Shown here: positions 5,206 through 23,648 of the stretch, piece after piece | Layout: each line of letters opens with the position of its first letter | Position numbering within the stretch: position 1 is the stretch's first letter | Source: a virus | Taxonomy: Duplodnaviria > Heunggongvirae > Uroviricota > Caudoviricetes | Length of the DNA stretch: 41,035 nt | Reading direction: 5' to 3' (one strand) | Virus record (IMG/VR): IMGVR_UViG_2671181040_000013 | Translations under genes and position numbers: made by a program | Notes under the pieces: model-generated | What the model saw: the letters and a program-made list of their open reading frames with translations, nothing else | Database searches by the model: none | What the model was told of the DNA's origin: nothing

Positions 5206-5209
5206 ATTT

Positions 5210-5768: not shown

Positions 5769-5980
5769 TCTTCGACCGCCTTACGCTTTTCACGCATATT
5801 CTGCATCAGGCAAAAATCAGATCTGCGTTCACTCCATTCCTGATTCAGTTCGTGATGTGATTCGCGGTTGGCTTTTGCCCAGACCTTCGCTGCCCGGTCA
5901 TATTCGCCGGATTGTTCAAGTCGCAAAGCCTCCCTTGCAGCCCTGTAATAAAGTGGATTGTCCCGGTATTTAAATGACAT
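5765..5980 (-). CDS. Hypothetical 71-aa protein
   Basis: ORF with AAGGAT RBS, overlapping neighbours in operon fashion. Confidence 0.5.
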   Translation of the reverse strand: MSFKYRDNPLYYRAAREALRLEQSGEYDRAAKVWAKANRESHHELNQEWSERRSDFCLMQNMREKRKAVEE

Positions 5981-5985
5981 AGGAG

Positions 5986-8049
5986 TTAATCCTTACGGTA
6001 GTGGTACGCCTCAAAACCGCCAGCGTTCAGTGGGATATCGGGCGCCCATTCGGGGTCAGTGGAGAGAAGCGCGGAAAGCGCTTTATCGTTGAAATCTTCT
6101 GTGTCAGGTGCTTCGGTGATCACCTCGTCGTGTACCGTCAGCACAATGCTGTAACCGGCATCTTCGATAAGCGGCATGTTTCCGGCCAGAATGTCGCGGG
6201 CGGCCGCCTGGGTGATGTTCTCCACCAGCTTTCCGCCGTAGGTTTTGAGTCGTTGCCATTTACGCGAATAAGAGTTAACCCCCATGTAGGTGATATTCCC
6301 TTTTTCGATAACCGGAGACGGGTAGCATACAGCGCGTCCGGATGGTAGCTGTATGCGCAGCCACGCGCCATCGCGGCGGATTTTAAGATAACCGCAATAC
6401 AATGTTTTTTGCGGTGTGGCGATTGCAGTGCGGACGGTGCGCTCCAGTTCGTACCAGAAATCACAGGTCGCGGGATGCGCCCGGCGCCAGAGACGTTTAA
6501 GTGAGTCGCAGGCGATAAATACCCGTTCAGAAAGCCCGTAGGTTGACTTGCGTTTAACCGATTCGTCGTACCAGCTTTTTGCCTCGCGGATAACATCGCG
6601 GGGAATGTTTGGTAGTGCGGCGTTCGCCAGCTCGTCGAGATCGAGACCGTAAACCAGTGCAAAAGTGATGAAGGCCGACACACCACCACCATAACCCAGA
6701 CCGAGTTCCATGACTTTACCGATCTGACGCATGTGTTTATCAACATCATCTGGTGCAATATCGAAAGCTTTTGCATACGCCAGTTTATATAAGTCCGGAC
6801 CCGTTCCGGCGTCGTACTCTCTGAATGCATTCAGTTTCCATTCTTCTCCCGCCAGCCATGCCAGCATACGGCCTTCAATGTTCGACAAGTCACTTACCAC
6901 CAGCTTTTTGCCTGTTGGCGCGATAATGCAGCCACGTAACGCTGAACTGGTTAGTTCCATGATATTGTCAAACAGCAGGTCTGCACATCCGGCTTTCAGT
7001 GCTTCGATGCCTTCGTCTATTTGTTCCTGTTTTAGTGAAGGGCGGGGAAGGTTCTGGGGCTGGAATAGCCGTCCGGCCCAACGACCGGTACGTGACGCCC
7101 CGCAGAACTGTAGCGTACCGCGTAAGCGCCCGTCGTGGCTTACGCCTTTCATCAGTGCCTTGTATTTACTGGTGCTGGTAGTACTGGCCTGCAGGCGGAT
7201 AGCCAGCAGTTCTTTCACGGCAGATGGTAAATCGGGGTCGGCAATACGACGTTCCAGAGTACTGCGTTGCATGTCCGGTAGCTCCACACCGTAGGATTCA
7301 ACAATGTGCTTAATCAACGCGTCCCGTTGTGTGGCTGCCTGCACTTCGCCATCAGTCATTTCCTGTGTACGCTTTGCCAGGCGCTTTTGCTCCTGGTCTA
7401 CCGCTTCGATCGCAGCGCGCGCGAGTTGCATGTCCATGCAGACGCCCCGGTCGTTGATCTGCTGATCACGATGCCAGAGCGCCAGCTCTGTCCCCTGATA
7501 ATTCCACTTCGGCAGACGTTTATAGACTTCGCGCATTGCCTCGATATCCAGTCCGGCGTAAGCAACAAAGCGCCGCCATTCTTCCGGGTGGGTTTTACTG
7601 GTGGCCCGACGCAGTTTGCTGTTTTTTGGGCGTGGCTTACAGAACAGCTGGATCAGCGCTTTACCTTCTTTGTCCTTCGCTTTGTCTTGCGGGACGCCTA
7701 GTACTTCGCAGAGTTCCCCCAGAGACCCCGGGAGACCGTGCGCCAGCGCCTGCACCATCGTGTCGCGCCAACGTTCGACTGGCGGTGCCAGTCGCGGCAT
7801 TGCATAACGCAGGACGGTGCGGTCGAAGTGAGAGTTATGAAAATAAAGCAGGGTTTCAGGGGCTGCGATTGCTTCGTATAAGCCGTGTGGAATACCACTA
7901 CCGGCAGTGATATCCCACACGTTTACGGGCCCGTCGTTGATAGCCCATGCGAACAGCATCACTTCAACGCCTTCGGCATACGCATGGGTACCGTTCGTAA
8001 TAGGGATTTCGCAATAGGTTTCTAGGTCACCCCATAGTATATTGGACAT
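5986..8049 (-). CDS. Family A DNA polymerase with 3'-5' exonuclease domain
   Basis: Exo motif DLETY near N-terminus; polymerase motifs ([25 protein letters not shown]) in the 687-aa translation. Confidence 0.9.
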
Positions 8050-8105
8050 AAAATAACCTTGTGTGATATATGGTTATGTAGGTGTAAATAAACAAGGAGA
8101 CGGCG

Positions 8106-8375
8106 GTGTTTAGCTTTGGTATCGGAATACTTTCATTGATAGGTATTATTGCTTTCCCCATTCTTTATATTTTAGGGAGAATAGTTCGGGCTGGTGGCGC
8201 ATGGCTCGAACGTGAAGAAGGTCCTAAGGATCGTGTTCTTCCCAAAATTATAATTTTTGCGCTTATTGGGTTCTTTCTTGGGTGTTTGGCTCAGCCTGTA
8301 TGGGACAGCATTTCGGCATGTAGAGACTATGGCAATCCAATAGGGAAATGTCTTTTTAAATTCAATGAATTTTAA
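8106..8375 (+). CDS. Small (89 aa) two-TM membrane protein, accessory gene
   Basis: GTG start with AAGGAGA RBS; two hydrophobic helices; AT-rich; opposite orientation to flanking early genes; hairpin 8392-8427 downstream. Confidence 0.55.
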   Translation: MFSFGIGILSLIGIIAFPILYILGRIVRAGGAWLEREEGPKDRVLPKIIIFALIGFFLGCLAQPVWDSISACRDYGNPIGKCLFKFNEF

Positions 8376-8442
8376 TTTTTAGTATTGCGGTAGGCTGGTT
8401 TGGATAACTATTTTCTTAAGCCAGCCTTTGTTATAAGAAATA

Positions 8443-9081
8443 TTAAGCATCTACCCCTTCGTCAGAAGGGAGGCCGATCATTTCGTTGAGAGTTTCGCGT
8501 CGTATAGCTGGCGGAAGCGGAGCAGATGGTGCATCGGCTGGCAGAAGTTCTTTAGCTTCAGGCCACTCTTCCAGCAGGCGCTTAACTGTGCGCACTTTAC
8601 TGAGTGCAGCGCTGACATTCTGTCGAATGTCTGACTCATCGCTCTGTATCTGCTCATAAAGTGCATCAAACCCGTAAAACTCTGTAACTAGAGGGTCATT
8701 TGCCAGAAGGGTAAATTCCCCCGGCGCGATTTTGTGAATATGGTCTGGTGACCCTGATTCATATCCTCGATAGTTACCGTTGAAATAGACGGTAACCCGA
8801 GAACCTGCCAGATTCAGACACATGTAACACTCTTTCCTGATAATATTATTGGCGGTTTTTAATGCTTCGGGGACTTTTGATACCAGTATTTCTATTTTTT
8901 TTATAATTTTTAATATTTCAGCTTCTTTCTCTACGCCCCCGATAGCTGCAAGCCGAACACGTTCGGCCCATTCAACACGAGCAGCTCGTAGTGCTGATTT
9001 ACGTTTGGGGATACCCGCTTTCTCAAGTGCGTTATTGATGATTTGAGTTTTAAGGTGATTAGTTAATACGGGCTGTGACAT
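8443..9081 (-). CDS. Hypothetical phage protein (about 212 aa)
   Basis: Long ORF in early operon; start chosen at MSQPVLT with GAGGG RBS. Confidence 0.6.
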   Translation of the reverse strand: MSQPVLTNHLKTQIINNALEKAGIPKRKSALRAARVEWAERVRLAAIGGVEKEAEILKIIKKIEILVSKVPEALKTANNIIRKECYMCLNLAGSRVTVYFNGNYRGYESGSPDHIHKIAPGEFTLLANDPLVTEFYGFDALYEQIQSDESDIRQNVSAALSKVRTVKRLLEEWPEAKELLPADAPSAPLPPAIRRETLNEMIGLPSDEGVDA

Positions 9082-9132
9082 TATTCTTTCCCTCATGAGA
9101 TCCCCCAGCATGTAGCTGGGGGATGAATATTT

Positions 9133-9681
9133 TTAAATTAGTGCTTCAGCATCAGCACCTTCGCTGATATCGTCGAAATCGTCAGCGCTTGCCACTCCGC
9201 CGCCAGCGAATGCATCGCCGTCTCGCAGGAACTGGACTCCGCCGAGTGAGGCATTAATGCGTTTACCGAAATTATTGTCCTGTGCCCAGATATCGATAAC
9301 GGCGTTTACATAGCACCCTGCATAGGGACGTCCGTCAGCCTGAATAAGTGGCGAACGATCGCGATCAAGAACAGCTGGGCGCGCTTTGTTAGCAGCATTC
9401 AGGAAGAAATTACCGGGGAAGCCTTCATACTCTGCTTTTTCATCACCATCATGCAGGCACAGATTGAGTTTTTTCTCCAGCTGGTTATAAATGGGCTCCC
9501 ACTTCTCTCCCCATTTTTCCTTCGCTACCTGCTTCATAGCTTTACGGATTTCTTCCAGTTGTGGGTGTTTGGGAGACATTAAAAATACTGCGGAGAAACG
9601 CGGATCGCCTTCGCCGTTTACAGTTTTAGCTTCAAACAGAGACGGGAAGGCCAGACGAACATTGTTCAGCTTCAGTTTCAT
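9133..9681 (-). CDS. Phage ssDNA-binding-like protein (DUF2815-like)
   Basis: N-terminus MKLKLNNVRLAFPSLFE and acidic C-terminal tail DDFDDISEGADAEALI. Confidence 0.7.
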   Translation of the reverse strand: MKLKLNNVRLAFPSLFEAKTVNGEGDPRFSAVFLMSPKHPQLEEIRKAMKQVAKEKWGEKWEPIYNQLEKKLNLCLHDGDEKAEYEGFPGNFFLNAANKARPAVLDRDRSPLIQADGRPYAGCYVNAVIDIWAQDNNFGKRINASLGGVQFLRDGDAFAGGGVASADDFDDISEGADAEALI

Positions 9682-9696
9682 GGGGATTTCCTTAAA

Positions 9697-10998
9697 TCAG
9701 ATGAGGTCTGCGGTTAGCGTATCGTCGGATACGTCGTCGAAATCATTTACAGGGTTGATATTGAGTGCGGGGCGTGGGTCTGACTCGGGAACGACGGTGG
9801 GTTTACCATCAGCTCGTGTTATCAGTGCCTCGACTTTTGACCAACGGCGCGGACTGGCCTTTTTGATAAGTTTTTCGGCTTTTGTGGGACTAATAAGTTT
9901 AAAGTCGAATACTTCTTCAGTTTTGTACCTGAACTGGTCCTTCAGAAGTGCGCGAGCTGCCACTTCGTCACTCCAGGCCCGGTTACCTTGTTTTCCTGTT
10001 ACCAGTTTAAACCCCGGTACCGGATGTCCGGCATTGAGTTCATTGTGAACCCGGTCCCGTACTGCCTTTAGCCAGGATTCAATAAAGTCGGCCTGGCTAT
10101 AGATCTCTGCAAGCTGCTCAATGGTTAACAGAGGTACACGTGCGCTGGCATTGGTGATTATTTCGCTGACAGGCTTTGTCAGATCTTCAAAATCGCTGGC
10201 CGCTGTTTGTAAATGCTGCATTTTCTGGGCAGTGCAAATAGCTTTTGCTTTACAGAAGCGGCACTGTTTTTCTCCAGGTATGAAGTTTTCCAGCGGTAGT
10301 GTCTCAATGCCTTCGCATTCAGCAATATTGAGAACAAGGATCGCACTGGTTGCGGCCTCCAGTGCCCGTTCTCCGAAAGACTGAAGTTCCTGTACGGTTA
10401 ACGACCATTCTGAAACGTGGTTGAGCCTTGGTTGGTGAATAAATAATCTTACAGTTTCAAAGTCATACAGCATGCTGAATTGTTCAAGCGCACCCAGAGC
10501 ATACAGTTGTAGTTGCTCATTTTGTTCTGCATCAATGCGGACGCCTTTGCCATATTTCAGGTCGTGGATTTGTAATTCGTTACCAGCGATGATTATGCCG
10601 TCGGCAGTTCCGAAAGATTCTTCCACACCCGTTATATGTGAGAAATCAACACGTTGTTCAACCAATAGTTCATTATTCTTTGCAAGAGTCCAGACCGTAT
10701 CAACATACCGGCCGACGGCTTCGACCATTTCATCATCCACCTGTGGGCCAGATTTATCATCAGGATTTTCGCGAAGGGGGTATGAGCCGAGAAACATAGA
10801 AACATTGCATCCGGCGTAGTGTTCCGGGTGGCTTTGCCTGTTTCGTAGAACTTTTTCAGCAAGCGCGTGCGCTGCAGTGCCCTCGATTGCAAAAGTTGTT
10901 TCTTTATCCGGTTGTGTGGCCTCCAGCGCCAGACTTCCTGGGCAGCGCATCCATCGATGCGCTGATGATGGAGAAAGTTGTGCGTGAACGTCTGGCAT
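9697..10998 (-). CDS. PD-(D/E)XK / Cas4-like nuclease (DUF2800-like) with C-terminal Cys cluster
   Basis: [14 protein letters not shown] motif near N-terminus, [10 protein letters not shown] cluster, acidic C-terminal tail. Confidence 0.75.
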
Positions 10999-11000
10999 GA

Positions 11001-11903
11001 TTAACCCTCCAGTGCTTTTTCAGCTAGGGTGATTACTTCAGCGAGATTTTCATCCGTTACTTCACCAAGTTTCCTGGCTCCCTGTTTTTCCAGAATTGCA
11101 ATAGCTTCTGCCCGGTAGCCCCCTTTTGCTAACTGGAGGATCAACCCTTCAGCTTGTTTGCGTAGTGCCGCGAAATCAATTGTATGGTCATCTTTGGCGT
11201 CATTATTCTGGCTGGAATTTGCTGCGTCTCTGCGTGCAAATTCTTCCTGCAGCTGAAGGTACTCAACACGGTTGATCTCGATATGGCCTTTTTTCAGCAT
11301 CTCGTTCAACTTGCGTAAGGTGTGGAGTTCACTGGCTGCTGTGCCGGATACATTTTTGACGTAAAACGGCCCCGTGCGTTCTCCATCCTTGTTACTGGCC
11401 TTTTTCGGCTTAACTTCATCACGCCCATCCGCAGGTGCATCAAGTAGCTGCTCGGCAAAAGCACGTCGCTCGCCGATGGTTGGCAGGTCGTCCCAGAACT
11501 TAAGGATGTTACGGGACAGGTCCAGGAGAGCAGGTTTAAGCAGCGCCCTGGCTCGTTTGACGCCCTGCAATGCGCTGTCGAGAGCATCAATCTGAACTAC
11601 TCGTTTATCGCCTTCAGCATCACGGTAGGCAACAGCACGTTGCAGCATGTCTTCTGTGATAGGGGTGGCTACCGGGTAGAAACCAGCCAGTGCGATAACG
11701 TCGCTGAACTCCAGATCATCCAGTGTCATTGCCGCTGACATATTTTCAGTTTCAGTTGCTGTATCCCGACATTCCTGCACTCGTGAAATCGTGTCAGGAT
11801 GCATAACAATGCCTGATGCCATTGTGCGGATAAGACGTTCAAGCAGCGCATTATGTTGTGCCAGAAGTTGATTATTAAGTTCTAGACTGGTTTCTAAACT
11901 CAT
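11001..11903 (-). CDS. Hypothetical phage early protein (300 aa)
   Basis: Long ORF overlapping neighbours by 4 bp in operon. Confidence 0.6.
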
Positions 11904-12049
11904 ACTGTGGTCCTCGCTACAAGGAGAATGAAAGTGATGATCAGACCGAGCGCAGTGGCAACGGCCAGACCGGTCATCAAATCGAAGTTTTTACGGCGAT
12001 AACGGAGAACATCGCGCCCCGTCAGTCGATGGATGTGTTCAGGTTTCAT
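11900..12049 (-). CDS. Small membrane protein (about 49 aa)
   Basis: Start at MKPEH with AAGGAA RBS; C-terminal hydrophobic helix; ATGA overlap with downstream gene. Confidence 0.4.
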   Translation of the reverse strand: MKPEHIHRLTGRDVLRYRRKNFDLMTGLAVATALGLIITFILLVARTTV

Positions 12050-12108
12050 CGGTTGTATTCCTTTTTTCATATCGGGGAGCACGCTGTTGCGAGTGCGCTT
12101 TCAGACAT

Positions 12109-12134
12109 AAAAAAGCCCGTCACGTGAGGCGGGC
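12109..12134 (-). terminator. Candidate intrinsic terminator inside the leftward early operon
   Basis: On the minus strand, GC stem GCCCG...CGGGC followed by a run of six U, between the first early gene and the rest of the operon. Confidence 0.45.
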
Positions 12135-12165
12135 AAAGACTACACACAGCAATTACATGGATGAT

Positions 12166-12360
12166 TCAGTTGGTATTGTGCGTACGTGGTACCACAAGGT
12201 TGAAGCGGACACGCCAGTGCGTTGCAATGGTATGCAGGAAAGCACCACATCCAGGGCAGTGCTCATAACATTCGTTGATTTGGTATTGTTTTGGCTTTGG
12301 TGTCTGAAGCTGTGTTTGGCAAGCAAGGCATTCACCTTTGAGCGGTTTATACGTTTTCAC
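12166..12360 (-). CDS. Small Cys-rich zinc-ribbon-like protein (64 aa), first gene of leftward operon
   Basis: GTG start with GAGGAA RBS; CxxC ... CxxxCxxC spacing; basic. Confidence 0.5.
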   Translation of the reverse strand: MKTYKPLKGECLACQTQLQTPKPKQYQINECYEHCPGCGAFLHTIATHWRVRFNLVVPRTHNTN

Positions 12361-12667
12361 GCCGTTTCCTCATTCAGTTCACTTTGGTGGTTCGGCGGCT
12401 TCGACTTGTATCAGTAGACAGTGCTTCGCCAGTGGATTAGTAAAAGGCCAGAAGCCTTTGATTAATTCACTGCTCGCCCCATCGTCGGGGCGTTTCAATT
12501 TGCGTGACTTATCAGCTCGTCGCGGTGTTGTCCTCTACGCTTACCGTACGCATACGGACTCGGCGCTTACCTCGATCCCATCGGGTGCCATTTCATTTTG
12601 CCAGGAGTACTGCGGCTTACCTGTCACGCGGTTCAGTTTGTTAAAGAGCGATTACTTATTGCGATTA

Positions 12668-12702
12668 AAAATACAAGCAAACCTGTAAATGCGTCAACAG
12701 GT
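12668..12702 (-). promoter_or_regulatory. Candidate leftward early promoter/operator (PL/OL-like)
   Basis: Minus-strand TTGACG -35-like hexamer; inverted repeat ACCTGT-N10-ACAGGT (12681-12702); 17-mer TACAAGCAAACCTGTAA (12672-12688) repeated at 13502-13518. Confidence 0.4.
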
Positions 12703-12750
12703 ATTTTGGTAAAAAATGCATTATTAACCTAATTACTTGTTTTCACAGGT

Positions 12751-12777
12751 AATAAAAAAGAGGGCCTAAGCCCTCTT
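12751..12777 (-). terminator. Intrinsic terminator downstream of the repressor gene (potentially bidirectional)
   Basis: Stem AAGAGGGC/GCCCTCTT with CTAA loop, flanked by an A-run on one side and T-rich tract on the other. Confidence 0.6.
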
Positions 12778-12798
12778 TGTTTAGTAGTCAGGATGCGA

Positions 12799-13428
12799 TT
12801 ATCTTTTTCTGCGGAATATGCGATGTTCTACCATTGTCCCTATGATCTTAATTGGTTTTTCCCAGGAGCGACAAATAGGGTAATCACTATTCAATGGAAC
12901 AAGTTCAAAGTCTTCCTCACCCTTAGCGCCAATCCCTATCGGGCGGTATTTTTTGAACGTTGCTTCGTGGCTACCGTTACATGCCGCAACGAATTCACCA
13001 GGAGTAGGGTATACGTCAGTGTCAATTATAACGATGTCCCCCTCTTTAAATTCAGGTTCCATTGAATCCCCACGTATACGTAGCGCAAATGAACTTTCTG
13101 ATAGCTCAGCCGTGGTGAGAATGTATTCGAAATCACCTTCTTCACGAAGTAGTTCAGCGCTTGTGAAAGCCCCTGCTTGTACGTAGCTTAGAACAGGCAC
13201 CCTTCGGGCTCCGTAGTTGAAATCTGTAACAACATCGCCCCCAAGAAGTAGCCATTTAGGATCGCATTCAAGAGCTGACGCTAAAGCAAGAAGATTGCGT
13301 GGTTTAAGTGTTTTCCCATTCTCTATAGCTTCAATCGACTGCTGGCTAATGCCCGCTCGTTTCGCAACTTCGACCTGAGTTAAGTTTAGTTCTGTTCTGC
13401 GTTTTTTAGCTCGGTTGGCAAGATTCAT
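12799..13428 (-). CDS. CI-like repressor (HTH plus S24/LexA-type autopeptidase domain)
   Basis: N-terminal HTH (LTQVEVAKRAGISQQSIEAIENG); C-terminal S24 motifs (GDSM ... K); AAGGAG RBS before ATG at 13428. Confidence 0.85.
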   Translation of the reverse strand: MNLANRAKKRRTELNLTQVEVAKRAGISQQSIEAIENGKTLKPRNLLALASALECDPKWLLLGGDVVTDFNYGARRVPVLSYVQAGAFTSAELLREEGDFEYILTTAELSESSFALRIRGDSMEPEFKEGDIVIIDTDVYPTPGEFVAACNGSHEATFKKYRPIGIGAKGEEDFELVPLNSDYPICRSWEKPIKIIGTMVEHRIFRRKR

Positions 13429-13453
13429 GTTGACTCCTTTTCTGTCATTGATG

Positions 13454-13518
13454 ATTACAGATACCTCTGTATTTGACAAACAAGGTTGCCTGTGAGGTAA
13501 TTACAAGTAAACCTGTAA
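13454..13518. promoter_or_regulatory. Divergent PRM/PR-like promoters with operator repeats
   Basis: Rightward TTGACA (13472-13477) -N17- GGTAAT (13495-13500); leftward -35 TTGTTT and -10 TGTAAT on the minus strand (plus coordinates 13478-13483 and 13454-13459); 17-mer TACAAGTAAACCTGTAA at 13502-13518. Confidence 0.5.
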
Positions 13519-13535
13519 TAATGAGGGCTTACTCA

Positions 13536-13760
13536 ATGACCAGTTCTACCCTTGCTTCACGTATAAAGGAGCGCCGCAAAGCTTTAGGTATAACCCAAAC
13601 TTCATTGGCTGAAAGTGTTGGCATGCGTCAGCAGTCTGTTCAATACCTTGAGTCCGGACGCGCCACCCGTACCGGTTTCATCCTTGAATTGGCAAAAGTT
13701 CTGAAATGCGATCCTGACTGGCTATTAAACGGCGAAAATTCAGAGCAGCAAAAGGTGTAA
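13536..13760 (+). CDS. Cro-like HTH regulator
   Basis: 74-aa protein with HTH (ITQTSLAESVGMRQQSVQYLESG), divergent from the repressor; GAGGG RBS. Confidence 0.7.
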   Translation: MTSSTLASRIKERRKALGITQTSLAESVGMRQQSVQYLESGRATRTGFILELAKVLKCDPDWLLNGENSEQQKV

Positions 13761-13763
13761 CCC

Positions 13764-16028
13764 ATGTCTGATAACAAACCATGGGGAGCTACGCCCGATG
13801 AATGGTTCCACTTCGATCTGGTGTTGGGGATGACAGACAGGCTTTTACCTGTGGTGTCCAATCCCTGTGCAGAACTGTCGCCTAATAGCAAGCTGTCTCA
13901 TAATTTCGGCAAAACACCCAGTCGCTACAATGGCCAACGTAAGGTTGTTGGTATCCCCGACTGGGCTAACTATGTTGTTACGGAAAACGATTTTGCCCGG
14001 TGGTCGAACGAACCCGATTACGGTATTTGCGTTCGTACTGGCGACGGGGTGGTGGCTCTGGACTGCGATATCAATGACGCCGGGATGCAGGAGATCGTAC
14101 GCAATATTATCCTGTCATGCCTGGGGGAACTTCCGCCACGTCGCTGGCGGGCTGACAGTCATAAATGCCTGTACCTGATTGCTGTTGATGGCGACTACCG
14201 TAAACGTGGTCACCGCCTGGAAGGCGAAAATAAACAAATAGAGCTGCTCGCTAAGGGCCAGCAGTTTGTGGCTTGTGGTACCCATCCGGCAGGCGAACGT
14301 ATTCAGTGGGACTGCGGTTTGCCCGGCGAACCTCTGAAAATTACATCTGAACAGCTCGAAAGCCTGTGGCAGCGCCTGGCGGATAACTTACCCGTGAAAG
14401 ACAGCTATACCGCAGGTGCGGGACGTCAGCGTGACCTTTCCTGTGTCGATCCTTCCGCGACAGATGATGTCGCCGACTGGCTTGACGCGAACGGGTGGAC
14501 TCTGTCGGTCAGCTCTGATGGTTCCCGCAATCTGAAACCGTTTCGGGATGAGTCAGAATACAGCAACGGTTGCAGCGAAACATCCATTAAGTATTTCCCA
14601 AAAGGGACGGGGGGATTTGAACAGGGACATTTTAAAAGCATGCACAACACCGATGCGGGGCTTACTGATGCCGACTGGCTGGAAGGCTACGGCTATACGC
14701 AATCTCTGTTCGAAGATCTCACGGTGGCTGAAGATGGCGATAAGCCTGAATTTACCGATATTAATACAGATATGACAGCCCATTTTCTGGAACGCTTTAT
14801 CTACGTCATCGAGGGTGACCAGGTATGTGATCTTAGCCGACCGCCATATCAGTGTATGATGGATATGAAGTCGTTCAAAAACCTGATGGCGCCTTACCAG
14901 TTCCCGCCAGAAGGGAAAGGACAACCAATTCCCGCAACCAAACGGTGGATAGAGCATCGGCATAAAAAGATTGCTGAGACGACAGGCTATAAGCCCGGTG
15001 CGGGACGTATTATCGAGCGTTTCGACGGGCGGTTTGAGATAAACGAATTTTATATGCCTGAGCATCCACGTACAGCGGATACAAGTAAGGTGTCCACGTT
15101 CCTTAATCATATGGCGTATCTGGTACCTGATGCCTGGCAGCGCGAGTTTTTCATCGCCCGTCTGGGGTGGATGGTTCAGCGTCCGGAGCGTCGATGCCCG
15201 ATTTCTATTCTGCATGTGGCTACCGCACATGGTACGGGCAGAGGATGGGTCAGCCAGTTAATGGAGCGCGTGCTTGGTCCGTGGAACTGTGCTCGTACTC
15301 GCATGAAGATCCTGTGCGATAACCAGTTCCATGACTATCTGTACAATACGCTTCTATGCACCATTGACGAGGTGCGCGAAAACGATAAGCGGTATGAGGT
15401 GAACGATAAGATCCGCGATGTGCTGACAGAACCACGGTTTGAAGTGAACCGCAAATATGGCAGCAAAAAAACGATGGATATATACACCGGCTTTCTGTTC
15501 TACACCAACCACTTTGATGCGCTGGCGCTGCCAGAGGAAGACAGACGTATCGCTGTGCTTGGTGGCCCTGACTTCGCCGCAACTGAAGAGCATTACGCCA
15601 GCCTGTACGGTGCGCTAAGCGACAGCGACTTTATCGCCCAGGTGTACTGGTATCTGATGGGCGTTGACCTGTCTCGCTTTAACTGGCAGCGCGCCCCCGA
15701 GACGAAAGAACGCCTTCTGATGATTGAAAGCAATAAGAGCGATGTGGAGGCTGCTCTTATTGAAATCCTGGATAATCCGCCTGTGCCAGCAATGACTTAT
15801 CAACAAATTGTTAACGCAATACTGGCAGAAGCAGGAATGGATGTAGAAATTAACCAGAAGCACATAACAAAGCTATTGCGAGAAAAAACAAAAAGGCAGC
15901 CAACAGATTTAGTAAAAATTGACGGAATGGGTTATCGCTTCTGGATACTTGCAAAAAATTGCGACTTCAATAATGAGGAATTGCGCGAAATATATAAAAC
16001 TTGCGAAATTTTGCAATCTGGATTGTAA
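13764..16028 (+). CDS. Phage DNA primase (prim-pol-like N-terminal domain, primase/helicase-like C-terminal region)
   Basis: 754-aa ORF after cro; acidic DxD-type motif (VALDCDINDAG); position and size typical of phage primases. Confidence 0.7.
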   Translation: MSDNKPWGATPDEWFHFDLVLGMTDRLLPVVSNPCAELSPNSKLSHNFGKTPSRYNGQRKVVGIPDWANYVVTENDFARWSNEPDYGICVRTGDGVVALDCDINDAGMQEIVRNIILSCLGELPPRRWRADSHKCLYLIAVDGDYRKRGHRLEGENKQIELLAKGQQFVACGTHPAGERIQWDCGLPGEPLKITSEQLESLWQRLADNLPVKDSYTAGAGRQRDLSCVDPSATDDVADWLDANGWTLSVSSDGSRNLKPFRDESEYSNGCSETSIKYFPKGTGGFEQGHFKSMHNTDAGLTDADWLEGYGYTQSLFEDLTVAEDGDKPEFTDINTDMTAHFLERFIYVIEGDQVCDLSRPPYQCMMDMKSFKNLMAPYQFPPEGKGQPIPATKRWIEHRHKKIAETTGYKPGAGRIIERFDGRFEINEFYMPEHPRTADTSKVSTFLNHMAYLVPDAWQREFFIARLGWMVQRPERRCPISILHVATAHGTGRGWVSQLMERVLGPWNCARTRMKILCDNQFHDYLYNTLLCTIDEVRENDKRYEVNDKIRDVLTEPRFEVNRKYGSKKTMDIYTGFLFYTNHFDALALPEEDRRIAVLGGPDFAATEEHYASLYGALSDSDFIAQVYWYLMGVDLSRFNWQRAPETKERLLMIESNKSDVEAALIEILDNPPVPAMTYQQIVNAILAEAGMDVEINQKHITKLLREKTKRQPTDLVKIDGMGYRFWILAKNCDFNNEELREIYKTCEILQSGL

Positions 16029-16812: not shown

Positions 16813-17235
16813 ATGCGCAGAGATATGCAACTTGTTCTGGAGCGGTGGGGGCGATGGGCCGCGAGCGAGGAATACTGTTCAATGGTTGACTGGCCTTCGA
16901 TGTCGGTGATGCCTCAACGCGTAACCGCCAGCGGCAAACCCGGTTGCTCCGACGAGGACGGAGCCGCAATTGACACCTGCATCGCCCACATGAGCATGGT
17001 GTGTCCGCATGACGACTTGCTGGTTCTTGGCCTACGTTTCATCGGCGGCTTTTCTACGCGCTCAATCGCTGAATCTGTGAATCGTAGCCACCTTAGCGTC
17101 AGAACATCGCTTAGAGCGTCAGAGGCATTTCTTGAGGGAGCGCTGGTGCTCCAGGGAATTCGACTGGATATGGACCCTGAAGTTGCTTTACCTGAAAAGG
17201 TTGTGTGCGCACAAAAACATGTGCTATGGTTGTAG
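16813..17235 (+). CDS. Q-like late antitermination protein
   Basis: N-terminus MRRDMQLVLERWGRWAA resembles lambdoid Q-family proteins as I remember them; Cys/His-rich centre; located just upstream of lysis genes. Confidence 0.6.
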   Translation: MRRDMQLVLERWGRWAASEEYCSMVDWPSMSVMPQRVTASGKPGCSDEDGAAIDTCIAHMSMVCPHDDLLVLGLRFIGGFSTRSIAESVNRSHLSVRTSLRASEAFLEGALVLQGIRLDMDPEVALPEKVVCAQKHVLWL

Positions 17236-17291: not shown

Positions 17292-17521
17292 CTTACCCCA
17301 TTCTGGGGAAAAGCTAATAAAACAGGGTTTTCGTCGCGAAAAAACGCTATGCAGTTTTTGCCCTTTTTTATGCACCTTTTATTCACTCGAATTTCGTCAT
17401 TCTGGACCACTTAAGTTGATTAAATAGGCCTTTCATCGCAAATCTATTGCGAGCGGTGATCGTGTGGTTCCTATAACGTACATTATGTTAAATAACCTCC
17501 TTTTTTAACAAATTTAACAAG

Positions 17522-17545
17522 GTTCGCTATGGCGAACTTTTTTTG
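17522..17545 (+). terminator. Intrinsic terminator upstream of lysis genes (tR'-like candidate)
   Basis: GTTCGC-TATG-GCGAAC stem-loop followed by eight T. Confidence 0.55.
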
Positions 17546-17645
17546 TATTCAGGGCCCACCGAAGGACGGCTCATAACCCAATCCTACGGGCGTATACGCA
17601 GGGCCCGCCTTTCAACAACACCCCGTAATGGCGGAGGTGGGAAGT

Positions 17646-17987
17646 ATGAAAATGCACAATGCTCCTCATTCCTGGCCTGACTTACTGGAACTCTTACAAA
17701 GTTGGTGGCGTGGAGACACACCGCTGGGCGCAGTGATTATGTCGATCGTTATGGCTGGTTTGCGCATCGCCTATTTTGGCGGTGGTGGTGGCTGGAAGCG
17801 AAAAACGCTCGAGATTTTGCTATGTGGTGCTCTGACGCTGACCTTTGCATCCGCTCTTGAGTATGTCGGATGGCCTAAATCGCTTTCTGTTGCCATTGGT
17901 GGTGGCGTGGGGCTGATCGGTGTCGATGCTATTCGTGGGGCTGCAATGCGAGTAATCGGTAACAAATTTGGTAGATCGAAGGAGTAA
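17646..17987 (+). CDS. Holin with dual-start (MKM) motif
   Basis: GGAGG RBS; N-terminus MKMHN; hydrophobic segments; immediately upstream of endolysin. Confidence 0.7.
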   Translation: MKMHNAPHSWPDLLELLQSWWRGDTPLGAVIMSIVMAGLRIAYFGGGGGWKRKTLEILLCGALTLTFASALEYVGWPKSLSVAIGGGVGLIGVDAIRGAAMRVIGNKFGRSKE

Positions 17988-17990
17988 TTT

Positions 17991-18467
17991 ATGCAGGCAC
18001 TAAATTCACAGCGTAAAGCTTTCCTGGATATGGTGGCATGGTCAGAAGGAACGGATAACGGGCGACAACCGACACGTAACCACGGTTATGATGTTATTGT
18101 TGGTGGCGAACTGTTCACTGATTACTCCGATCACCCCCGCAAACTTGTCACGCTAAACCCCAAACTCAAATCAACAGCCGCCGGACGTTACCAGCTTCTT
18201 TCACGCTGGTGGGATGCTTACCGTAAACAGCTTGGCCTGAAAGATTTTTCGCCAGAAAGTCAGGACGCTGTGGCGCTGCAGCAGATTAAAGAGCGTGGCG
18301 CTTTACCGATGATTGACCGTGGCGATATTCGTCAGGCAATCGACCGTTGCAGCAATATCTGGGCGTCGTTACCTGGTGCAGGTTACGGTCAGTATGAACA
18401 TAAAATCGGTGACCTGATTGCCCGATTTAAAAAAGCTGGCGGAACGGTCAGAGAGATTGAGGTATGA
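17991..18467 (+). CDS. R: Endolysin, lambda R-type lytic transglycosylase
   Basis: Translation ([46 protein letters not shown]...) nearly matches lambda R as I recall it. Confidence 0.9.
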
Positions 18468-18925
18468 GCAGAGTCACCGCGATTATCTCCGCTTTGGTTA
18501 TCTGCATCATCGTCTGCCTGTCATGGGCTGTTAATCATTACCGTGATAACGCCATTACCTACAAAGCCCAGCGCGACAAAAATGCCAGAGAACTGAAGCT
18601 GGCGAACGCGGCAATTACTGACATGCAGCAGCGCCAGCGTGATGCTGATGCACTCGATGCTAAATACACCGGAGAACTAGCTGATGCGAAAAAGCAGCTT
18701 GATGATCTGCAGCGTTGTGTTCGCACTGGCAAGTGTGGGCTGCACTTCAATGCCCGATGTCCAGCGAGCGGAAAGACCGGCACCGGCAGCTTGGGCGATG
18801 CTTCCAGCCCCGGACTTACTGACTCCGCTGAACGGGATTATTTCACCCTCAGAGAGCGAATCGTCACAGTGACGAAGCAGGTCGGCTACTTGCAGGACTA
18901 CATCAAAGAGCAGTGTTCAAATTAG
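18464..18925 (+). CDS. Rz: i-spanin Rz
   Basis: N-terminus [55 protein letters not shown] matches lambda Rz from memory. Confidence 0.9.
18684..18872 (+). CDS. Rz1: o-spanin Rz1 lipoprotein, embedded in +1 frame within Rz
   Basis: 62-aa ORF fully inside Rz; lipobox-like SVGC; proline-rich; C-terminal [11 protein letters not shown] as in lambda Rz1. Confidence 0.8.
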
Positions 18926-18983
18926 TGTTAATGAAGAATTTTAAGGGTAATATTATCTCTATTTCTCAGGATGGAGGTAATTT

Positions 18984-19391
18984 ATGCAGACCGATCTGGA
19001 ATACTTGAAGGGAATGTTAGGGGTCTTTATTAAGGCTGGCGGACCATTGATATCAGCTAATGACCTTAAAAAAGCTGGATACGAAATAAGCAGCGATAAA
19101 GGACTCTTTCATTACTACCAATTGATTGAGAGAGGTTATATCAGTAACCATTTTCTAGAAATAGGCGATCCTAAGAAATTAGGACTTACTATTGGGCTTA
19201 ATGAAATCCGTGAATGGCCAGCCAATGTAAGACTCACGTCATCAGGCCAAGAGTTTGCAGAAACCCTTCAACAAAAGGATGTTTTTGAGAAGCTAAAAAC
19301 AATTAGCGATCAACCATTATCGGTATTGAAAGATGTTGGTGTAGAGCTTCTAAAATCCTACGCAAAAAAGAAATTTGGTCTTTCAGATTAA
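18984..19391 (+). CDS. Hypothetical 135-aa protein, accessory gene after lysis cassette
   Basis: Strong GGAGG RBS; AT-rich; occupies the lysis-terminase position where lambda carries bor. Confidence 0.65.
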   Translation: MQTDLEYLKGMLGVFIKAGGPLISANDLKKAGYEISSDKGLFHYYQLIERGYISNHFLEIGDPKKLGLTIGLNEIREWPANVRLTSSGQEFAETLQQKDVFEKLKTISDQPLSVLKDVGVELLKSYAKKKFGLSD

Positions 19392-19771
19392 CTGCCTATG
19401 GGCGGTTTTTATTGCCATTACGATGATTCTCCCCATTGTGATGGCAGTATCCCCTACAGAGGATAATTAACCATATATCCCCACAAGCAGATAAAGAGGC
19501 TCTCAATGTCCGACATCTACCAAACCCAAACAGGCGAAACCTTTACGGGCAAGACGTCACGACGTCAGCCTGAGCTGGTTAATGGCTTTATGCAGCTGGC
19601 TACCGAGACGGGCGAGTAAATAACTCCATTAGGAGAATGTGGAACCATTACACTTTGAGCCGTTAACTGATATTGATAAAGGTAAATAATATCCTGGTTA
19701 AGGTTTTCTAATAGCCAGCCATTTGCAAAATCACAGTTACAGCAGCAGCGAAAGCTGCATATGAGTTATAT

Positions 19772-19981
19772 TTAGACTGTAACCGCGCAGTTAAGAAAAA
19801 TTCGTGAAGATCTACATTTTTTTTTGGGATCATCAAATGTAATTGCTACAACGGTGCTTCTACCTGTTTTGACTTTGGCTGTTGCTGATTTGATCCATAA
19901 CCCAGCCGATAAAAACCCAAAGAAAATCGATAGTGCATGATGGTCAATTAACCAGTTTTTAATTAGTAATAAATCACTCAT
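19772..19981 (-). CDS. Small (about 69 aa) single-TM membrane protein, accessory gene
   Basis: Minus-strand ORF in AT-rich DNA just upstream of terS; hydrophobic helix ALSIFFGFLSAGLWI; start chosen at MSDLLL, weak RBS. Confidence 0.45.
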   Translation of the reverse strand: MSDLLLIKNWLIDHHALSIFFGFLSAGLWIKSATAKVKTGRSTVVAITFDDPKKKCRSSRIFLNCAVTV

Positions 19982-20005
19982 TTTCAATCCAATTGAGACT
20001 TTGTC

Positions 20006-20557
20006 ATGGCACTCACCGACAAACAAGAGATGTTCTGTCGCGAGTACCTCATCGATTTAAACGCCACGCAAGCGGCTATTCGGGCGGGGTACAGCGCAAA
20101 GACAGCTAACCGTACCGCATCCGAAAACCTGTCAAAACCTGACATCAAGTTAAGAATCGCCGAACTGAAAGCGCAACGCAATGATCTTGTTGGTATTAAT
20201 GCAGAATATGTACTTAATCGCCTTATTGAAATCGACCAGATGGATGTGCTTGACATTCTCCTGCAAAACGGTGAGCTAAAACCCATTAAAGACTGGCCTA
20301 AGGTATGGCGCACAACGTTATCAGGAATGGATGTCGTGGAGATGGCATCCGCAGATAGCGCCGCACTTCTGAAGAAAATCAAATGGCCTGATAAGGTTAA
20401 AAACCTTGAGTTGCTCGGGCGTCATGTTTCTGTTCAGGCGTTTAAAGACAATGTCAAAAATGAAGTGACTGGTGCTGACGGAGGACCAGTCAGAACAGAA
20501 ATTACCAACTTAACGCCGGAGCAGGTTACAGAAGCGTATAAAAAAATGATGGGCTAA
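20006..20557 (+). CDS. terS: Terminase small subunit
   Basis: N-terminus [30 protein letters not shown] typical of small terminase; immediately upstream of large terminase. Confidence 0.8.
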
Positions 20558-20559
20558 GT

Positions 20560-22182
20560 ATGCCGTTACCATTTCCCTTCGATTTTAAACATCCTGATTA
20601 CCAGATGGTTTTTGAATGGCGGATGGAACGCCTACAGCGCATTCGCCAGAATCCTGAAATATTGCCCGTATTGAAGCAGTTTTACCGTACCAACCCAGCT
20701 CAGTTCATCATCGACTGGGGCATGACAACAGACCCGCGTAATATTGATTATGGCCTGCCGGTGACCATTCCGTTTTTACTCTTCCCTAAGCAGGAGGAGT
20801 GGATCCACTGGATTATGGAACGCTGGAGCAATCGGGAGAATGGTATTACCGAAAAATCCCGTGAAATGGGGCTCAGTTGGACCGCGATCGGACTGGCCTG
20901 CTCGCTTTGTCTCTTCAACAAAGAAATGGTTATCGGTTTTGGCTCCCGTAAAGAGGAATACGTCGACAGCACTGGTGACCCGAAAGCATTGTTCTGGAAG
21001 GCGCGCAAGTTCGTGGAAACGCTACCTGTAGAGTTTCGCGGTTCGTGGAGTGAGAAGAAGCACGCGCCATATATGCGTGTTGAGTTTCCTGAAACTGGTG
21101 CCGTTATCAAAGGCGAGGCTGGCGATAATATTGGTCGTGGTGACCGTACCACGCTTTATCTGGTTGATGAGGCTGCATTCCTTCAGCGTCCTCTGCTGAT
21201 TGATGCGGCGTTGTCACAAACGACGCGTTGCCGTATCGACCTGAGTTCAGTTAACGGCATGGCGAACCCGTTCGCTCAGAAGCGTCATGGCGGGAAGATA
21301 CCGGTATTCACATTCCACTGGCGGGATGATCCTCGCAAGGATGAAGAGTGGTATCGCAGGGAATGCGAGAAAATCGATAATCCGGTGGTGGTGGCACAGG
21401 AACTTGATCTGAACTACAGCGCATCAGCGGAAGGCGTCCTGATTCCATCCGAATGGGTACAGGCTGCCGTTGATGCGCATATCAAACTGGGTATCCAGCC
21501 AACAGGCAAACGACTTGGCGCGATGGATGTCGCCGACGAAGGCAGGGACAAAAATGCCTTTTCCACCCGTCATGGCTTCCTCCTGGAAAATGTGCGGGAA
21601 TGGTCCGGTGTGGGCAGCGACATTTATCAGTCCGTCGAGAAGGTTTTCGGCTTTTGCGAACAGGATAACCTCGAAGAGTTTCGCTTTGACGAGGACGGGC
21701 TGGGCGCTGGCGTTCGCGGCGATGCACGCGCTATCAACGAACTGCGTAACGCTGCGCGTCGACCGTCAATACTCGCCACACCGTTTCGAGGTAGTGGCGC
21801 GGTATTTGATCCGGATGATGAAGCTGTTCGCGGGGACAACGGGCAAGCCGCACGTCTGAACAAGGACTTCTTCGCTAACGCCAAAGCCCAAAGCTGGTGG
21901 CGGTTACGTAAACTTTTTCAGAATACCTGGCGCGCCGTGGTTGAAGGTATGGCTTACAACCCGGACGAAATCATCTCAATCAGCAGTAGCATGGCACTCA
22001 AAGATAAACTCATCATCGAGCTTTCGCAGCCGACCTATTCCATTAATGGTGTGGGAAAAATCGTTATTGATAAACAGCCTGATGGGACCCGGTCGCCAAA
22101 TCTTGCCGACTCGGTGATGATCAACTATGCCCCAATGAATTCAGCCCTGAACATCTGGGAGTTGCTAGGGAGACAGGCCTGA
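20560..22182 (+). CDS. terL: Terminase large subunit
   Basis: 540 aa; Walker B-like LYLVDEAAF; position between terS and portal. Confidence 0.85.
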
Positions 22183-23648
22183 TGGCACGAAACAAACAAG
22201 CCCTGCGGCGAACTGCGCAGGCCACAGCTGATGGTTATGAGAATTTTATCGCCCGCGTAGGGATGCAGACACCTAACCAGCACTCAGCATCCACCTACCG
22301 GGCTAATTTCACCAGTCGTAACCGCATGCTGGTGGAATGGTCCTATCGTTCTTCCTGGATCATCGGCGAAGCAGTCGATGCTATCCCGGATGATATGACC
22401 CGCAAAGGCATTCGCATCACTTCGGAAATTGATGCAAAAGATCGTGGCATTCTCGAATCACAACTGGATGAGTTGCAAATCTGGGATGCGCTGAATGACG
22501 TGCTGAAATGGTCGCGCCTCTACGGCGGCGCGGTGGGTTTCATCATGATTGAGGGGCAGGCACCAATGACCCCGCTGCGACCCGAAACCATCGGTAAGGG
22601 CAAGTTTAAGGGGATTCTCCCGCTCGACCGCTGGATGATTGACCCGGTACTGACCCGCCGCATTAAAGATATGGGGCCGGACCTGGGTAAACCTGAGTTT
22701 TATGATGTGGTGACCACAGCAACGGGAATTCCTGCCTGGCGCATTCATCACAGTCGCCTGATTCGCTTTGATGGCGTCACGCTGCCATTTCAGCAGAAGA
22801 TGACCGAGAACGAATGGGGAATGTCGGTTGTAGAGCGTATCTGGGATCGTCTTACCGCGTTCGACAGCGCTACTGTCGGCGCGGCGCAGCTGGTCTACAA
22901 AGCGCATTTGCGTACCTACAGCGTGGAGAAGCTACGCGAGCTTATCGCACTTGGTGGTCCTGCGTATGAAGCGTTGCTGAAGAATATCGACCTGATTCGA
23001 CAGTTCCAGAGCAATGAAGGCATGACGCTCATGGACTCGCGGGATAAGTTTGAAACGCATCAGTACAGCTTCAGTGGTCTGGATGACATCCTATCACAGT
23101 TTGCAGAACAGATTAGTGGCGCTGTTGGTATCCCACTGGTGCGGTTGTTCGGACAGTCCCCGAAAGGATTTTCTACCGGTGATGCAGACCTTGCCAACTA
23201 TTACGACCGCATCAGTTCGTTGCAGGAGAGACGTTTACGTCTTCCGGTGCGGCGGATACTGGACATCATGCATCGTTCGGAACTTGGCAAGCCGCTCCCG
23301 GATGATTTCACGTTTGAGTTTAACCCGCTCTGGCAAATGTCTGATGTCGATCGCTCAACGGTGGCGTTAAATACCACCAACGCAATCAGTACAGCGCTGG
23401 GTGATGGTCTGATGACACTGAAAGCTGCTATGACTGATTTGCGCGAAAATTCTGACGTAACCGGCATCGGGGCATCCATTACCGACGAGGACATCGAGAA
23501 TGCCGAAGACGAAGCGCCGCCCGGCATCGGCGAACCTGATGACGAACCGCAGGAACCGTCAGGCGGAAATCCGCTATCGAACCAGCCTACGCAGGATAGC
23601 GCGGGCGGTCGGAGACATCGTAAATGGTCACTACGATGGTTCAAATGA
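22182..23648 (+). CDS. Portal protein
   Basis: 488 aa following terL with overlapping stop/start (TGATG); acidic C-terminal tail. Confidence 0.8.
   Translation: MARNKQALRRTAQATADGYENFIARVGMQTPNQHSASTYRANFTSRNRMLVEWSYRSSWIIGEAVDAIPDDMTRKGIRITSEIDAKDRGILESQLDELQIWDALNDVLKWSRLYGGAVGFIMIEGQAPMTPLRPETIGKGKFKGILPLDRWMIDPVLTRRIKDMGPDLGKPEFYDVVTTATGIPAWRIHHSRLIRFDGVTLPFQQKMTENEWGMSVVERIWDRLTAFDSATVGAAQLVYKAHLRTYSVEKLRELIALGGPAYEALLKNIDLIRQFQSNEGMTLMDSRDKFETHQYSFSGLDDILSQFAEQISGAVGIPLVRLFGQSPKGFSTGDADLANYYDRISSLQERRLRLPVRRILDIMHRSELGKPLPDDFTFEFNPLWQMSDVDRSTVALNTTNAISTALGDGLMTLKAAMTDLRENSDVTGIGASITDEDIENAEDEAPPGIGEPDDEPQEPSGGNPLSNQPTQDSAGGRRHRKWSLRWFK

Follow-up and report, generated by a model that had tools for sequence, protein, structure and literature searches.

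The gene that lies between the lysis genes and the terminase genes of this prophage is a dispensable and horizontally exchanged cassette. The cassette consists of a ribosome-binding site, an open reading frame (ORF) of 135 amino acids, and an intrinsic terminator, and it occupies the slot between the spanins and the terminases, which is a recognised cargo slot of lambdoid phages. We found it in a stretch of 41,035 nucleotides (IMG/VR record IMGVR_UViG_2671181040_000013; hereafter, the window), which is a lambdoid, Q-regulated prophage of E. coli. The initial annotation of the window had described an accessory gene at this position. The family membership of its protein, the winged-helix fold, the coupling to a terminator, and the family-wide preference for the slot go beyond that annotation. 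As for function, our best explanation, to which we give somewhat less than an even chance, is that the ORF encodes a binding-only accessory protein for conflicts between phages or between a phage and its host, and that this protein is expressed late, probably with additional expression that does not depend on Q.

The features of the junction and of the genes around it, with their positions in the window, are:

16813–17235, plus strand: Q antiterminator (Pfam Phage_antitermQ, 1.8e-30)
17519–17540, plus strand: tR'-like terminator site, which precedes the holin gene
17628–17987: holin (Pfam Phage_holin_3_1)
17991–18467: lysozyme, upstream of Rz
18464–18925, plus strand: Rz i-spanin (Pfam Phage_lysis, 3.3e-37; PHROG 13, 1.9e-70)
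18684–18872: Rz1 ORF, embedded in Rz; with Rz, the last of the lysis genes
18926–19388, plus strand: swap unit (cargo cassette), comprising a 58-nt AT-rich leader and the ORF, from blastn comparisons to sister E. coli prophages
18973–18977, plus strand: Shine-Dalgarno sequence GGAGG, 6 nt before the ATG, from inspection of the sequence
18984–19391, plus strand: coding sequence for the 135-aa protein, with an ATG start (PHROG 585; a divergent DUF2513 protein with a predicted winged helix)
19390–19415, plus strand: intrinsic-terminator-like hairpin AACTGCC-TATG-GGCGGTT (19390–19407) and then the T-run TTTTATTG; it overlaps the stop codon
19410–19449, no strand assigned: second hairpin or inverted repeat, directly after the terminator, with a 16-bp stem, UAUUGCCAUUACGAUG...CAUUGUGAUGGCAGUA
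20006–20557, plus strand: small terminase subunit, terS (Pfam Terminase_2, 7e-40; PHROG 51)
20560–22182: large terminase subunit, terL, after terS
22182–23648: portal, after terL

Since the Q gene and the tR'-like terminator lie upstream of the holin gene, the ORF is contained in a Q-dependent late operon. If this operon works as in lambda, then Q-modified RNA polymerase would read through from the lysis genes and transcribe the ORF late. A scan of the whole window with Rfam found no RNA family. Downstream of the ORF, the window also has a convergent gene for a small membrane protein, on the minus strand.

The initial annotation had proposed an AT-rich gene with a GGAGG ribosome-binding site, whose product would be a soluble protein of 135 amino acids without a recognised catalytic motif, and each of these points held up. 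The start codon lies 58 nt beyond the end of Rz, and an AGGAGG- or GGAG-type ribosome-binding site is retained in most of the homologous loci. The GC content of the ORF is 0.38 (0.33 at third codon positions, or GC3), as compared to 0.493 for the whole window. GC content is 0.38–0.40 across positions 18850–19450, versus 0.50–0.56 in the flanks within Rz and terL. Rz and terL have GC/GC3 of 0.53/0.59 and 0.52/0.57, and the flanking genes overall have GC of 0.46–0.53 and GC3 of 0.46–0.59, so the composition of the ORF is distinct. The protein contains no cysteine, and its most hydrophobic stretch of 19 residues has a Kyte-Doolittle score of just 1.04. It has neither a transmembrane-like segment nor a hydrophobic N-terminus.

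The ORF is a real gene under strong purifying selection. When compared to homologues that are 87–90% identical at the protein level, its dN/dS is 0.04–0.09 (dS is 0.8–1.6 and dN is 0.05–0.09), and synonymous sites are nearly saturated. When compared to a homologue with 57% identity, dN/dS is 0.13. One might still suspect that the ORF is spurious or is decaying and functionless: the small ORFs beside it have degraded (the minus-strand gene is frameshifted and orf37 is truncated), and no function is on record for the protein. However, besides the low dN/dS at saturated synonymous sites, the full length is retained in 44 close clusters of homologues, stand-alone proteins of about 130–150 amino acids that align to nearly the whole query make up most of 104 representative clusters, the ribosome-binding site is conserved, and the AlphaFold2 model is confident. 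We give almost no credence to a functionless ORF, which the selection analysis refutes.

The protein belongs to a divergent branch of the DUF2513 family. Over residues 1–133, it matches PHROG 585 (E = 1.1e-26, 94.6 bits, positions 1–127 of the 128 in the profile). Its similarity to Pfam's model of DUF2513 (PF10711) is limited to residues 36–110 and scores 15.4 bits (E = 0.025), which is below the curated gathering cut-off of 29.6 bits. The link to DUF2513 comes from the protein's relatives. An exhaustive search with phmmer against 1.84 billion representatives found the 104 clusters mentioned above. Among these relatives, 59 of 77 have a PF10711 match with E ≤ 0.01 (down to 9e-15), and a search with a profile of the family recovers proteins with precomputed assignments to PF10711, with E values as low as 6e-47. 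The protein thus represents a sub-branch of DUF2513, from Enterobacterales, that is not captured by the PF10711 model. We file it under PHROG 585 and, via transitive homology, in the DUF2513 superfamily. As to its distribution, a word-indexed search of 5.8 billion proteins found the 44 close clusters, and all of the named ones are from Enterobacterales (Escherichia, Citrobacter, Klebsiella, Pectobacterium, Hafnia, Serratia, Pantoea, and Enterobacter). Some sources already label members of these 44 clusters as DUF2513.

The window protein resembles other members of DUF2513 and PHROG 585 in more than its stand-alone length (about 130–145 amino acids). It shares an N-terminal winged helix-turn-helix (wHTH) with the motifs FH...L..G and RLT..G, and a basic KKK patch in the helix at the C-terminus. 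In a full-length alignment of 90 sequences, H43, G67, R83, L84, G88, and F91 are invariant, and D4, Y7, G32, F42, L47, T85, and K129 are nearly invariant. Sequence searches of the protein against Pfam, NCBIfam, PADLOC, and the PDB found nothing beyond the sub-threshold similarity to DUF2513, and a search of the PDB with a 77-sequence profile returned only a MarR chain (E = 0.58). Overall, we found no homology to lysis, structural, defence, or enzymatic families. In particular, the protein is not detectably related to a known lysis accessory or structural protein, which is the outcome that the initial annotation had named as speaking against its proposal. A search of one literature library found no paper that mentions DUF2513 or PF10711.

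Structure prediction, which the initial annotation had suggested as a check, yielded a winged helix and a confident AlphaFold model. With 33 close homologues as input, the winged helix (residues 1–96) was confident and the C-terminus was poorly defined (pLDDT of 83). With 90 diverse homologues, the entire chain was confident (pLDDT of 95.6 and pTM of 0.88). The predicted helices are at residues 5–17, 25–30, 38–50, 86–96, 98–105, and 112–130, and a predicted four-stranded wing is at 53–55, 68–70, 75–77, and 81–84. In other words, the model can be split into a wHTH domain (residues 1–96) and C-terminal helices (98–130), and the predicted fold is compact, a winged helix similar to those of MarR and PadR to which three C-terminal helices are added. 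The closest folds to the model are MarR, PadR, TubR, and F93. The protein differs in several ways from the proteins with which it shares the winged helix-turn-helix fold (PadR, LmrR, and MarR, as well as TubR and STIV F93). It does not match the MarR or PadR profiles of Pfam or NCBIfam, even at E ≤ 1; its wing is longer, with four strands; and its predicted surface is acidic to neutral, with a recognition helix without basic residues. At the level of the model, the winged-helix fold is established, but the fold does not imply that the protein binds DNA.

We also considered two potential roles for the C-terminal helix and rejected both of them. It could be an amphipathic helix that targets the protein to the membrane, but its hydrophobic moment does not exceed a modest 0.48. 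Or it could form a dimer interface, but the deeper AlphaFold2 model packs it confidently inside the monomer, so the C-terminal helices need not form such an interface.

The gene is exchanged for other genes in closely related prophages. Three sister prophages from E. coli (L006, L007, and L008) have related lysis genes, and their terS and terL are 94–97% identical to those of the window. As measured by blastn, similarity to the sisters ends at positions 18691–18906 of the window and restarts at 19389 (L007), 19448 (L008), or 19475 (L006). In the slot, L008 has a Rha-family regulator, L007 has a KilA-N protein and a PP2C fragment, and L006 has small ORFs and a DUF2441 gene on the minus strand. 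Because sister prophages with nearly identical terminases carry other genes in the slot, the ORF is dispensable cargo, which bears out its description as an accessory gene at the junction of Rz and the terminase. The exchange also means that the protein cannot be required by these modules for lysis or packaging.

Among 5,426 complete genomes of E. coli, 10 contain the complete 2.1-kb junction, and 18 contain the ORF or a relative that is detectable by blastn. These 18 comprise 12 chromosomes and 6 plasmids. The plasmids are about 46–52 kb and carry holin, endolysin, and terminase genes as well as a protein that is annotated as DUF2513 domain-containing. A scan of GTDB species representatives, which was pattern-limited and used a narrow alignment, found 6 loci. 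Just 4 of 50,697 phage records in GenBank encode a detectable relative, and none of these is a recognisable virulent phage. For example, phage Chlobot has an integrase, and the Klebsiella phage records bear the names of the strains that they came from, which points to an origin as prophages. Among the elements that we examined, the gene was seen only in temperate ones.

To describe where the gene is found across the family, we used 59 phage loci with homologues (56 from IMG/VR and 3 GenBank phage records). A Phage_lysis-type Rz lies within 1.2 kb upstream in 33 of the 59 loci, and another 8 loci have a DUF2514-type or PHROG 312 spanin upstream. More broadly, the genes upstream of the homologues encode spanins, lysozymes, and holins. 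Downstream, the small terminase subunits in 31 representative loci are of the types Terminase_2 (10), Terminase_4 (3), Nu1 (2), and DUF2280 (3), the large subunits are of the types GpA, Terminase_6N, TerL_ATPase, and Terminase_3, and HNH endonucleases are just downstream in 5 cases. At least five terminase families are represented. Relatives with just 31–33% identity hold the same address in three prophages: a lambda-like prophage whose genes run Q, holin, lysozyme, Rz, a 75-aa ORF, DUF2513, and Nu1/GpA; a Pectobacteriaceae prophage; and a prophage with a P22-type portal. In two loci (L054 and L068, the latter being the P22-portal prophage), the gene is preceded by terS (PHROG 370) and followed by terL, and both of these relatives also match PHROG 585. 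We clustered all of the neighbouring genes across the loci and found no partner gene that co-varies with the homologues; Rz is the sole common neighbour. One protein with similarity to the Acb2/Tad1 hairpin was noticed among the upstream neighbours and was not re-found among the immediate neighbours. Some relatives are located elsewhere: one adjoins xis/int in phage Chlobot, others follow DnaB in a nin-like region of Serratia prophages, one is in an array of small cassette-like ORFs beside a reverse transcriptase in Vibrio crassostreae, and one is in a chromosome with a SMODS gene nearby.

A role in lysis or packaging would explain the position: the protein might be a cytoplasmic regulator of the timing of lysis, or it might help packaging by binding to cos or pac. 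The gene follows a spanin in at least 41 of the 59 loci and is 0–3 genes away from terS or terL, and in L054 and L068 it even lies between them. Also, winged-helix domains are known in small terminase subunits. However, the sister prophages have related lysis genes and nearly the same terminases and do without the gene. The terminases that accompany the gene come from five or more unrelated families, and the holins, endolysins, and spanins are of several types, which implies no specific partner. Furthermore, some relatives are beside xis/int, in the nin-like region, or in non-phage islands, and the protein does not match terS or lysis families. Given these observations, we view a role in lysis or packaging as very unlikely. 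Another candidate was that the protein is itself terS. We rejected this because the protein does not match any Pfam or PHROG family for terS, the window has a separate terS of the Terminase_2 type, and in L054 and L068 a terS from PHROG 370 precedes the gene.

The gene is often followed closely by a terminator. Of 32 distinct homologous loci, 24 have a terminator-like hairpin no more than 90 nt after the stop codon, as compared to 32 of 584 other ORFs (which were crude ORF calls from the same loci). Across the homologous loci, these terminators have at least 6 unrelated stem sequences. In the window, the RNA from 19380 to 19460, which includes both hairpins, has a folding energy of -30.7 kcal/mol (z = -5.9). 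The inverted repeat at 19410–19449 is also present in many homologous loci and in L006 and L007, which do not have the gene, so this repeat is an element of the backbone and is not specific to the cargo. Both the window's terminator and the repeat are found behind a different cargo in L007, so part of the association with terminators could be due to the backbone. Within an operon that is antiterminated by Q, a terminator acts only on polymerase that is not antiterminated. By the classical logic of morons, a terminator that is kept directly behind the gene suggests that the ORF is probably also transcribed independently of Q.

We looked for a promoter that might drive such transcription. No consensus-like promoter was scored in the window's leader, and its -10-like TAATAT/TATTAT is not retained in the homologues with 87–90% identity. 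Across the loci, a site like a sigma-70 promoter was found upstream of 3 of 30 homologues and of 55 of 551 other ORFs, using a scan that weak promoters would escape. As promoters are not enriched, expression in the lysogen lacks support.

In lambda, the gene directly after Rz/Rz1 is bor, on the opposite strand to the late operon. The initial annotation had pointed to bor and had considered the window's gene to be unrelated to it. The shared position was confirmed, and BLASTP gave no alignment to Bor at E ≤ 100. So the two genes occupy the same slot without a sequence relation. In contrast to bor, the window's gene is co-oriented with the late operon, and its product appears to be cytoplasmic instead of a lipoprotein. 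Like other morons in the late operons of lambdoid phages (bor, lom, and HK97 gp15), the gene comes and goes among similar phages, is foreign in composition, and, in the window, is followed by its own terminator; unlike for those morons, no promoter was recognised. Among the traits that Hendrix and Juhala ascribed to morons, we observed presence or absence with shared flanks, a terminator downstream, and distinct composition. Overall, the gene is moron-like in three of four testable features, the fourth feature being a promoter directly upstream.

Another useful comparison is to the Tab/anti-Tab moron of the Pseudomonas phage JBD26, which comprises small conflict genes between terS and terL (PMC10884400). 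There, a plus-strand gene is transcribed as part of the late operon, and its minus-strand neighbour has its own promoter (PMC10884400). The window is similar in that it has a small accessory gene next to the terminases in a temperate phage and a convergent gene for a small membrane protein downstream on the minus strand. A sequence relationship to the window protein is not expected. Also, in the window's relatives the presence of the minus-strand neighbour does not track that of the DUF2513 gene. We considered a two-gene system like Tab/anti-Tab, but the minus-strand gene is also found beside other cargos, in L007 and L008, so such a system is not supported.

Among the relatives, the only hints of function come from fused proteins. 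In P0094, the full module (corresponding to residues 3–131 of the query) is N-terminal to a TIR domain of the CAP12/Pycsar type, and the TIR part matches PDC-S35 and PycTIR from PADLOC. Another relative, P0120, has a weakly AbiTi-like C-terminus. In fusions of this kind, the non-catalytic domain normally supplies recognition. These fusions are rare (2 of the 104 representatives, counting TIR and AbiTi-like together). The window protein resembles the TIR-effector defence proteins (CAP12/PycTIR and PDC-S35) by way of the DUF2513-like module in P0094, but it has no effector domain. When compared to PADLOC-DB v2, neither the protein nor its two small neighbours had a match at E ≤ 1, and none of the stand-alone relatives that we scanned had a match. 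The TIR fusion is a speculative lead.

If our best explanation is correct, then the protein would act not by catalysis but by stoichiometric binding of a target, either a protein or a nucleic acid, from a competing phage or from the host. Its role could be exclusion, defence, or counter-defence, and would be neither lysis nor packaging. The evidence for this explanation is the purifying selection, the fold, the absence of the gene from the sister prophages, the preference for the slot, the terminator, and the occurrence in temperate elements only. It is also favoured by the membership in PHROG 585 and DUF2513, the lack of matches to enzymes, defence proteins, or structural proteins, the foreign composition, the upstream Q gene and tR'-like terminator, the TIR and AbiTi-like fusions, and the JBD26 genes as a precedent for conflict genes in this region of a late operon. 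On the other side, there is no co-varying partner gene, promoters are not enriched, the backbone could account for part of the association with terminators, PADLOC gave no match, the fusions are just 2 of the 104 representatives, and the winged helix could equally mean that the protein is an ordinary DNA-binding regulator.

A regulator of this kind might be similar to antirepressors: a PadR/MarR-like dimer would bind to a specific operator of the phage, of a co-resident prophage, or of the host. This is possible but doubtful, and the same holds for the corollary that the protein is a functional analogue of Rha and of the KilA-N DNA-binding proteins, which are found in the slot of the sister prophages. 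The resemblance to MarR, PadR, TubR, and F93, the invariant 'RLTxxG' motif of the wing, and the presence of Rha and KilA-N proteins among the other cargos of the slot all fit with a regulator. However, the family is acidic to neutral: the median pI is 5.4, the pI of the window protein is 6.7, and the net charge of its wHTH core is -2. In the putative recognition helix (residues 38–50), F42, H43, and L47 are conserved, but there are almost no conserved basic or polar residues to read DNA, and the basic patch that is conserved lies at the C-terminal KKK instead. The PadR and MarR profiles are not matched, we found no palindrome whose presence tracks that of the gene (loci without the gene share the inverted repeat that lies nearby), and the confident placement of the C-terminal helices within the monomer means that a dimer interface is not required. 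Alternatively, the gene might be a moron for lysogenic conversion or defence, with its own weak promoter (in the 58-nt leader or at the 3' end of Rz) and its own terminator, so that it would be expressed in the lysogen and would exclude superinfecting phages or abort their infections. In favour of this, the coupling to terminators is tight (24/32 versus 32/584), the composition is AT-rich and foreign, and the gene is patchily distributed (18/5,426 E. coli genomes and 6 GTDB-representative loci from the pattern-limited scan) and confined to temperate elements. P0094, in which a TIR effector is fused to the module, and the relatives in the Vibrio array of small ORFs by a reverse transcriptase and near the SMODS gene, would also fit. 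But we found no promoter-like site in the leader and no enrichment of promoters across the family, the -10-like TAATAT/TATTAT is lost even in close homologues, and the protein has neither a PADLOC match nor an effector domain. We think that a defence gene of the lysogen is rather unlikely.

A more specific proposal, and one that we consider improbable, builds on the fusions: the DUF2513-like module would be a recognition domain for a cue of infection, such as a phage protein, an immune signal, or a nucleotide signal. In other proteins, this module would be wired to TIR or AbiTi-like effectors, and the free-standing copy that temperate phages carry at the end of the lysis cassette would be a decoy or sponge, or else a sensor without an effector, that blocks a rival phage or a defence of the host.

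Overall, this is an ordinary prophage cargo gene, and what is regular about it is its fixed address across unrelated terminases and its coupling to terminators. A family that is uncharacterised, PHROG 585/DUF2513, recurs in the slot between spanins and terminases across phages with unrelated terminases, and this recurrence opens a DUF to specific and inexpensive experiments. If the protein is an ordinary regulator, then the outcome would be a better annotation for a common prophage slot. The rare TIR fusion hints at a role in recognition, and if the module is indeed a recognition domain, then it would represent a new family of conflict proteins that work by binding alone and keep a constant place in the genomes of lambdoid phages.

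The slot between Rz and terS is a hypervariable cargo site, rich in proteins with DNA-binding domains. In three sister E. coli prophages that have terS/terL in common with the window (L006, L007 and L008), this slot holds, respectively, a minus-strand DUF2441 gene, a KilA-N protein with a PP2C-phosphatase fragment, and a Rha-family regulator.

In two P22-portal-type prophages, whose terS belongs to PHROG 370 (289 aa), the DUF2513-like gene is inserted between terS and terL (L054, 6001-6408; L068, 6001-6435). In L054, a terminator-like hairpin lies behind it. Tab/anti-Tab of JBD26 is also reported to lie between terS and terL (PMC10884400). In Yersinia phage vB_YpM_39, which encodes a homologue that is 56% identical to the window's protein, the gene lies 3' of the lysis genes and a tRNA and just 5' of a series of genes with ParB/Srx domains and of the terminase. 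The 48.7-kb E. coli plasmid pGMI14-004_3 has the same gene arrangement; its 135-aa protein is annotated as DUF2513 domain-containing, and an MT-A70 methyltransferase is also encoded upstream. The DUF2513-like gene is present on six plasmids from E. coli, with sizes of about 46-52 kb. In a contig from Vibrio crassostreae (L074, 5254-9094), a canonical DUF2513 gene lies within an array of small same-strand ORFs, which adjoins a reverse transcriptase gene. The sizes of these ORFs repeat (198, 136, 198, 82, 136 and 237 aa), and the layout is reminiscent of a defence island or of integron cassettes.

Fusions of the complete DUF2513-like module are rare. One 278-aa relative (P0094, at 355-1191 of L067) joins it to a C-terminal TIR domain of the CAP12/Pycsar type. 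Three others (P0120, P0199 and P0207; 254-255 aa) are longer by about 120 aa, and this added part is weakly AbiTi-like (match at 2.6e-4). P0199 is encoded next to an integrase-like gene.

Behind the terminator that follows the DUF2513-like ORF, we noted these features:

19410-19449: long inverted repeat or hairpin (stem of 16 bp), directly 3' of the terminator
19506-19619, plus strand: 37-aa ORF, matching only the first 41 of the 66 positions of PHROG 6581
19708-20026, minus strand: convergent gene of PHROG 14357, frameshifted in the window

Folded jointly, the terminator and the hairpin at 19410-19449 give z = -5.9. Many related loci keep this hairpin, among them sister prophages without the DUF2513-like gene. 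Possibilities for the repeat are a recombination junction, a protein-binding site, or a second RNA structure. Because counterparts of the 37-aa ORF in other loci have 67-72 aa, the window's version looks truncated.

The product of the PHROG 14357 gene looks like a small membrane protein, with two hydrophobic stretches as judged by eye. The window's frameshift arises at a run of nine Ts (19817-19825). The E. coli 12089 prophage (99% identical) has eight Ts there and an intact CDS of 90 aa (WP_001281633.1), and the window's frameshift could reflect slippage or a sequencing error.

Further upstream, the window contains:

470-1873: integrase-like ORF
2067-3464, minus strand: SNF2-type helicase
5986-8049, minus strand: family A DNA polymerase
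8443-9111, minus strand: Nmad5 (2.6e-56)
9697-10998, minus strand: DUF2800 PD-(D/E)XK nuclease
13764-16028, plus strand: Prim-Pol/DUF5906 protein
17519-17540, plus strand: tR'-like intrinsic terminator (9-bp stem and T-run), between Q and the holin gene

The position of the tR'-like terminator is consistent with Q-dependent control of the late operon, as in lambda. The early region (2067-16028) carries an unusual set of replication and nucleotide-modification genes. E. coli 12089 carries a sister prophage whose early region is Rac-like and completely different, so the window's phage is mosaic.
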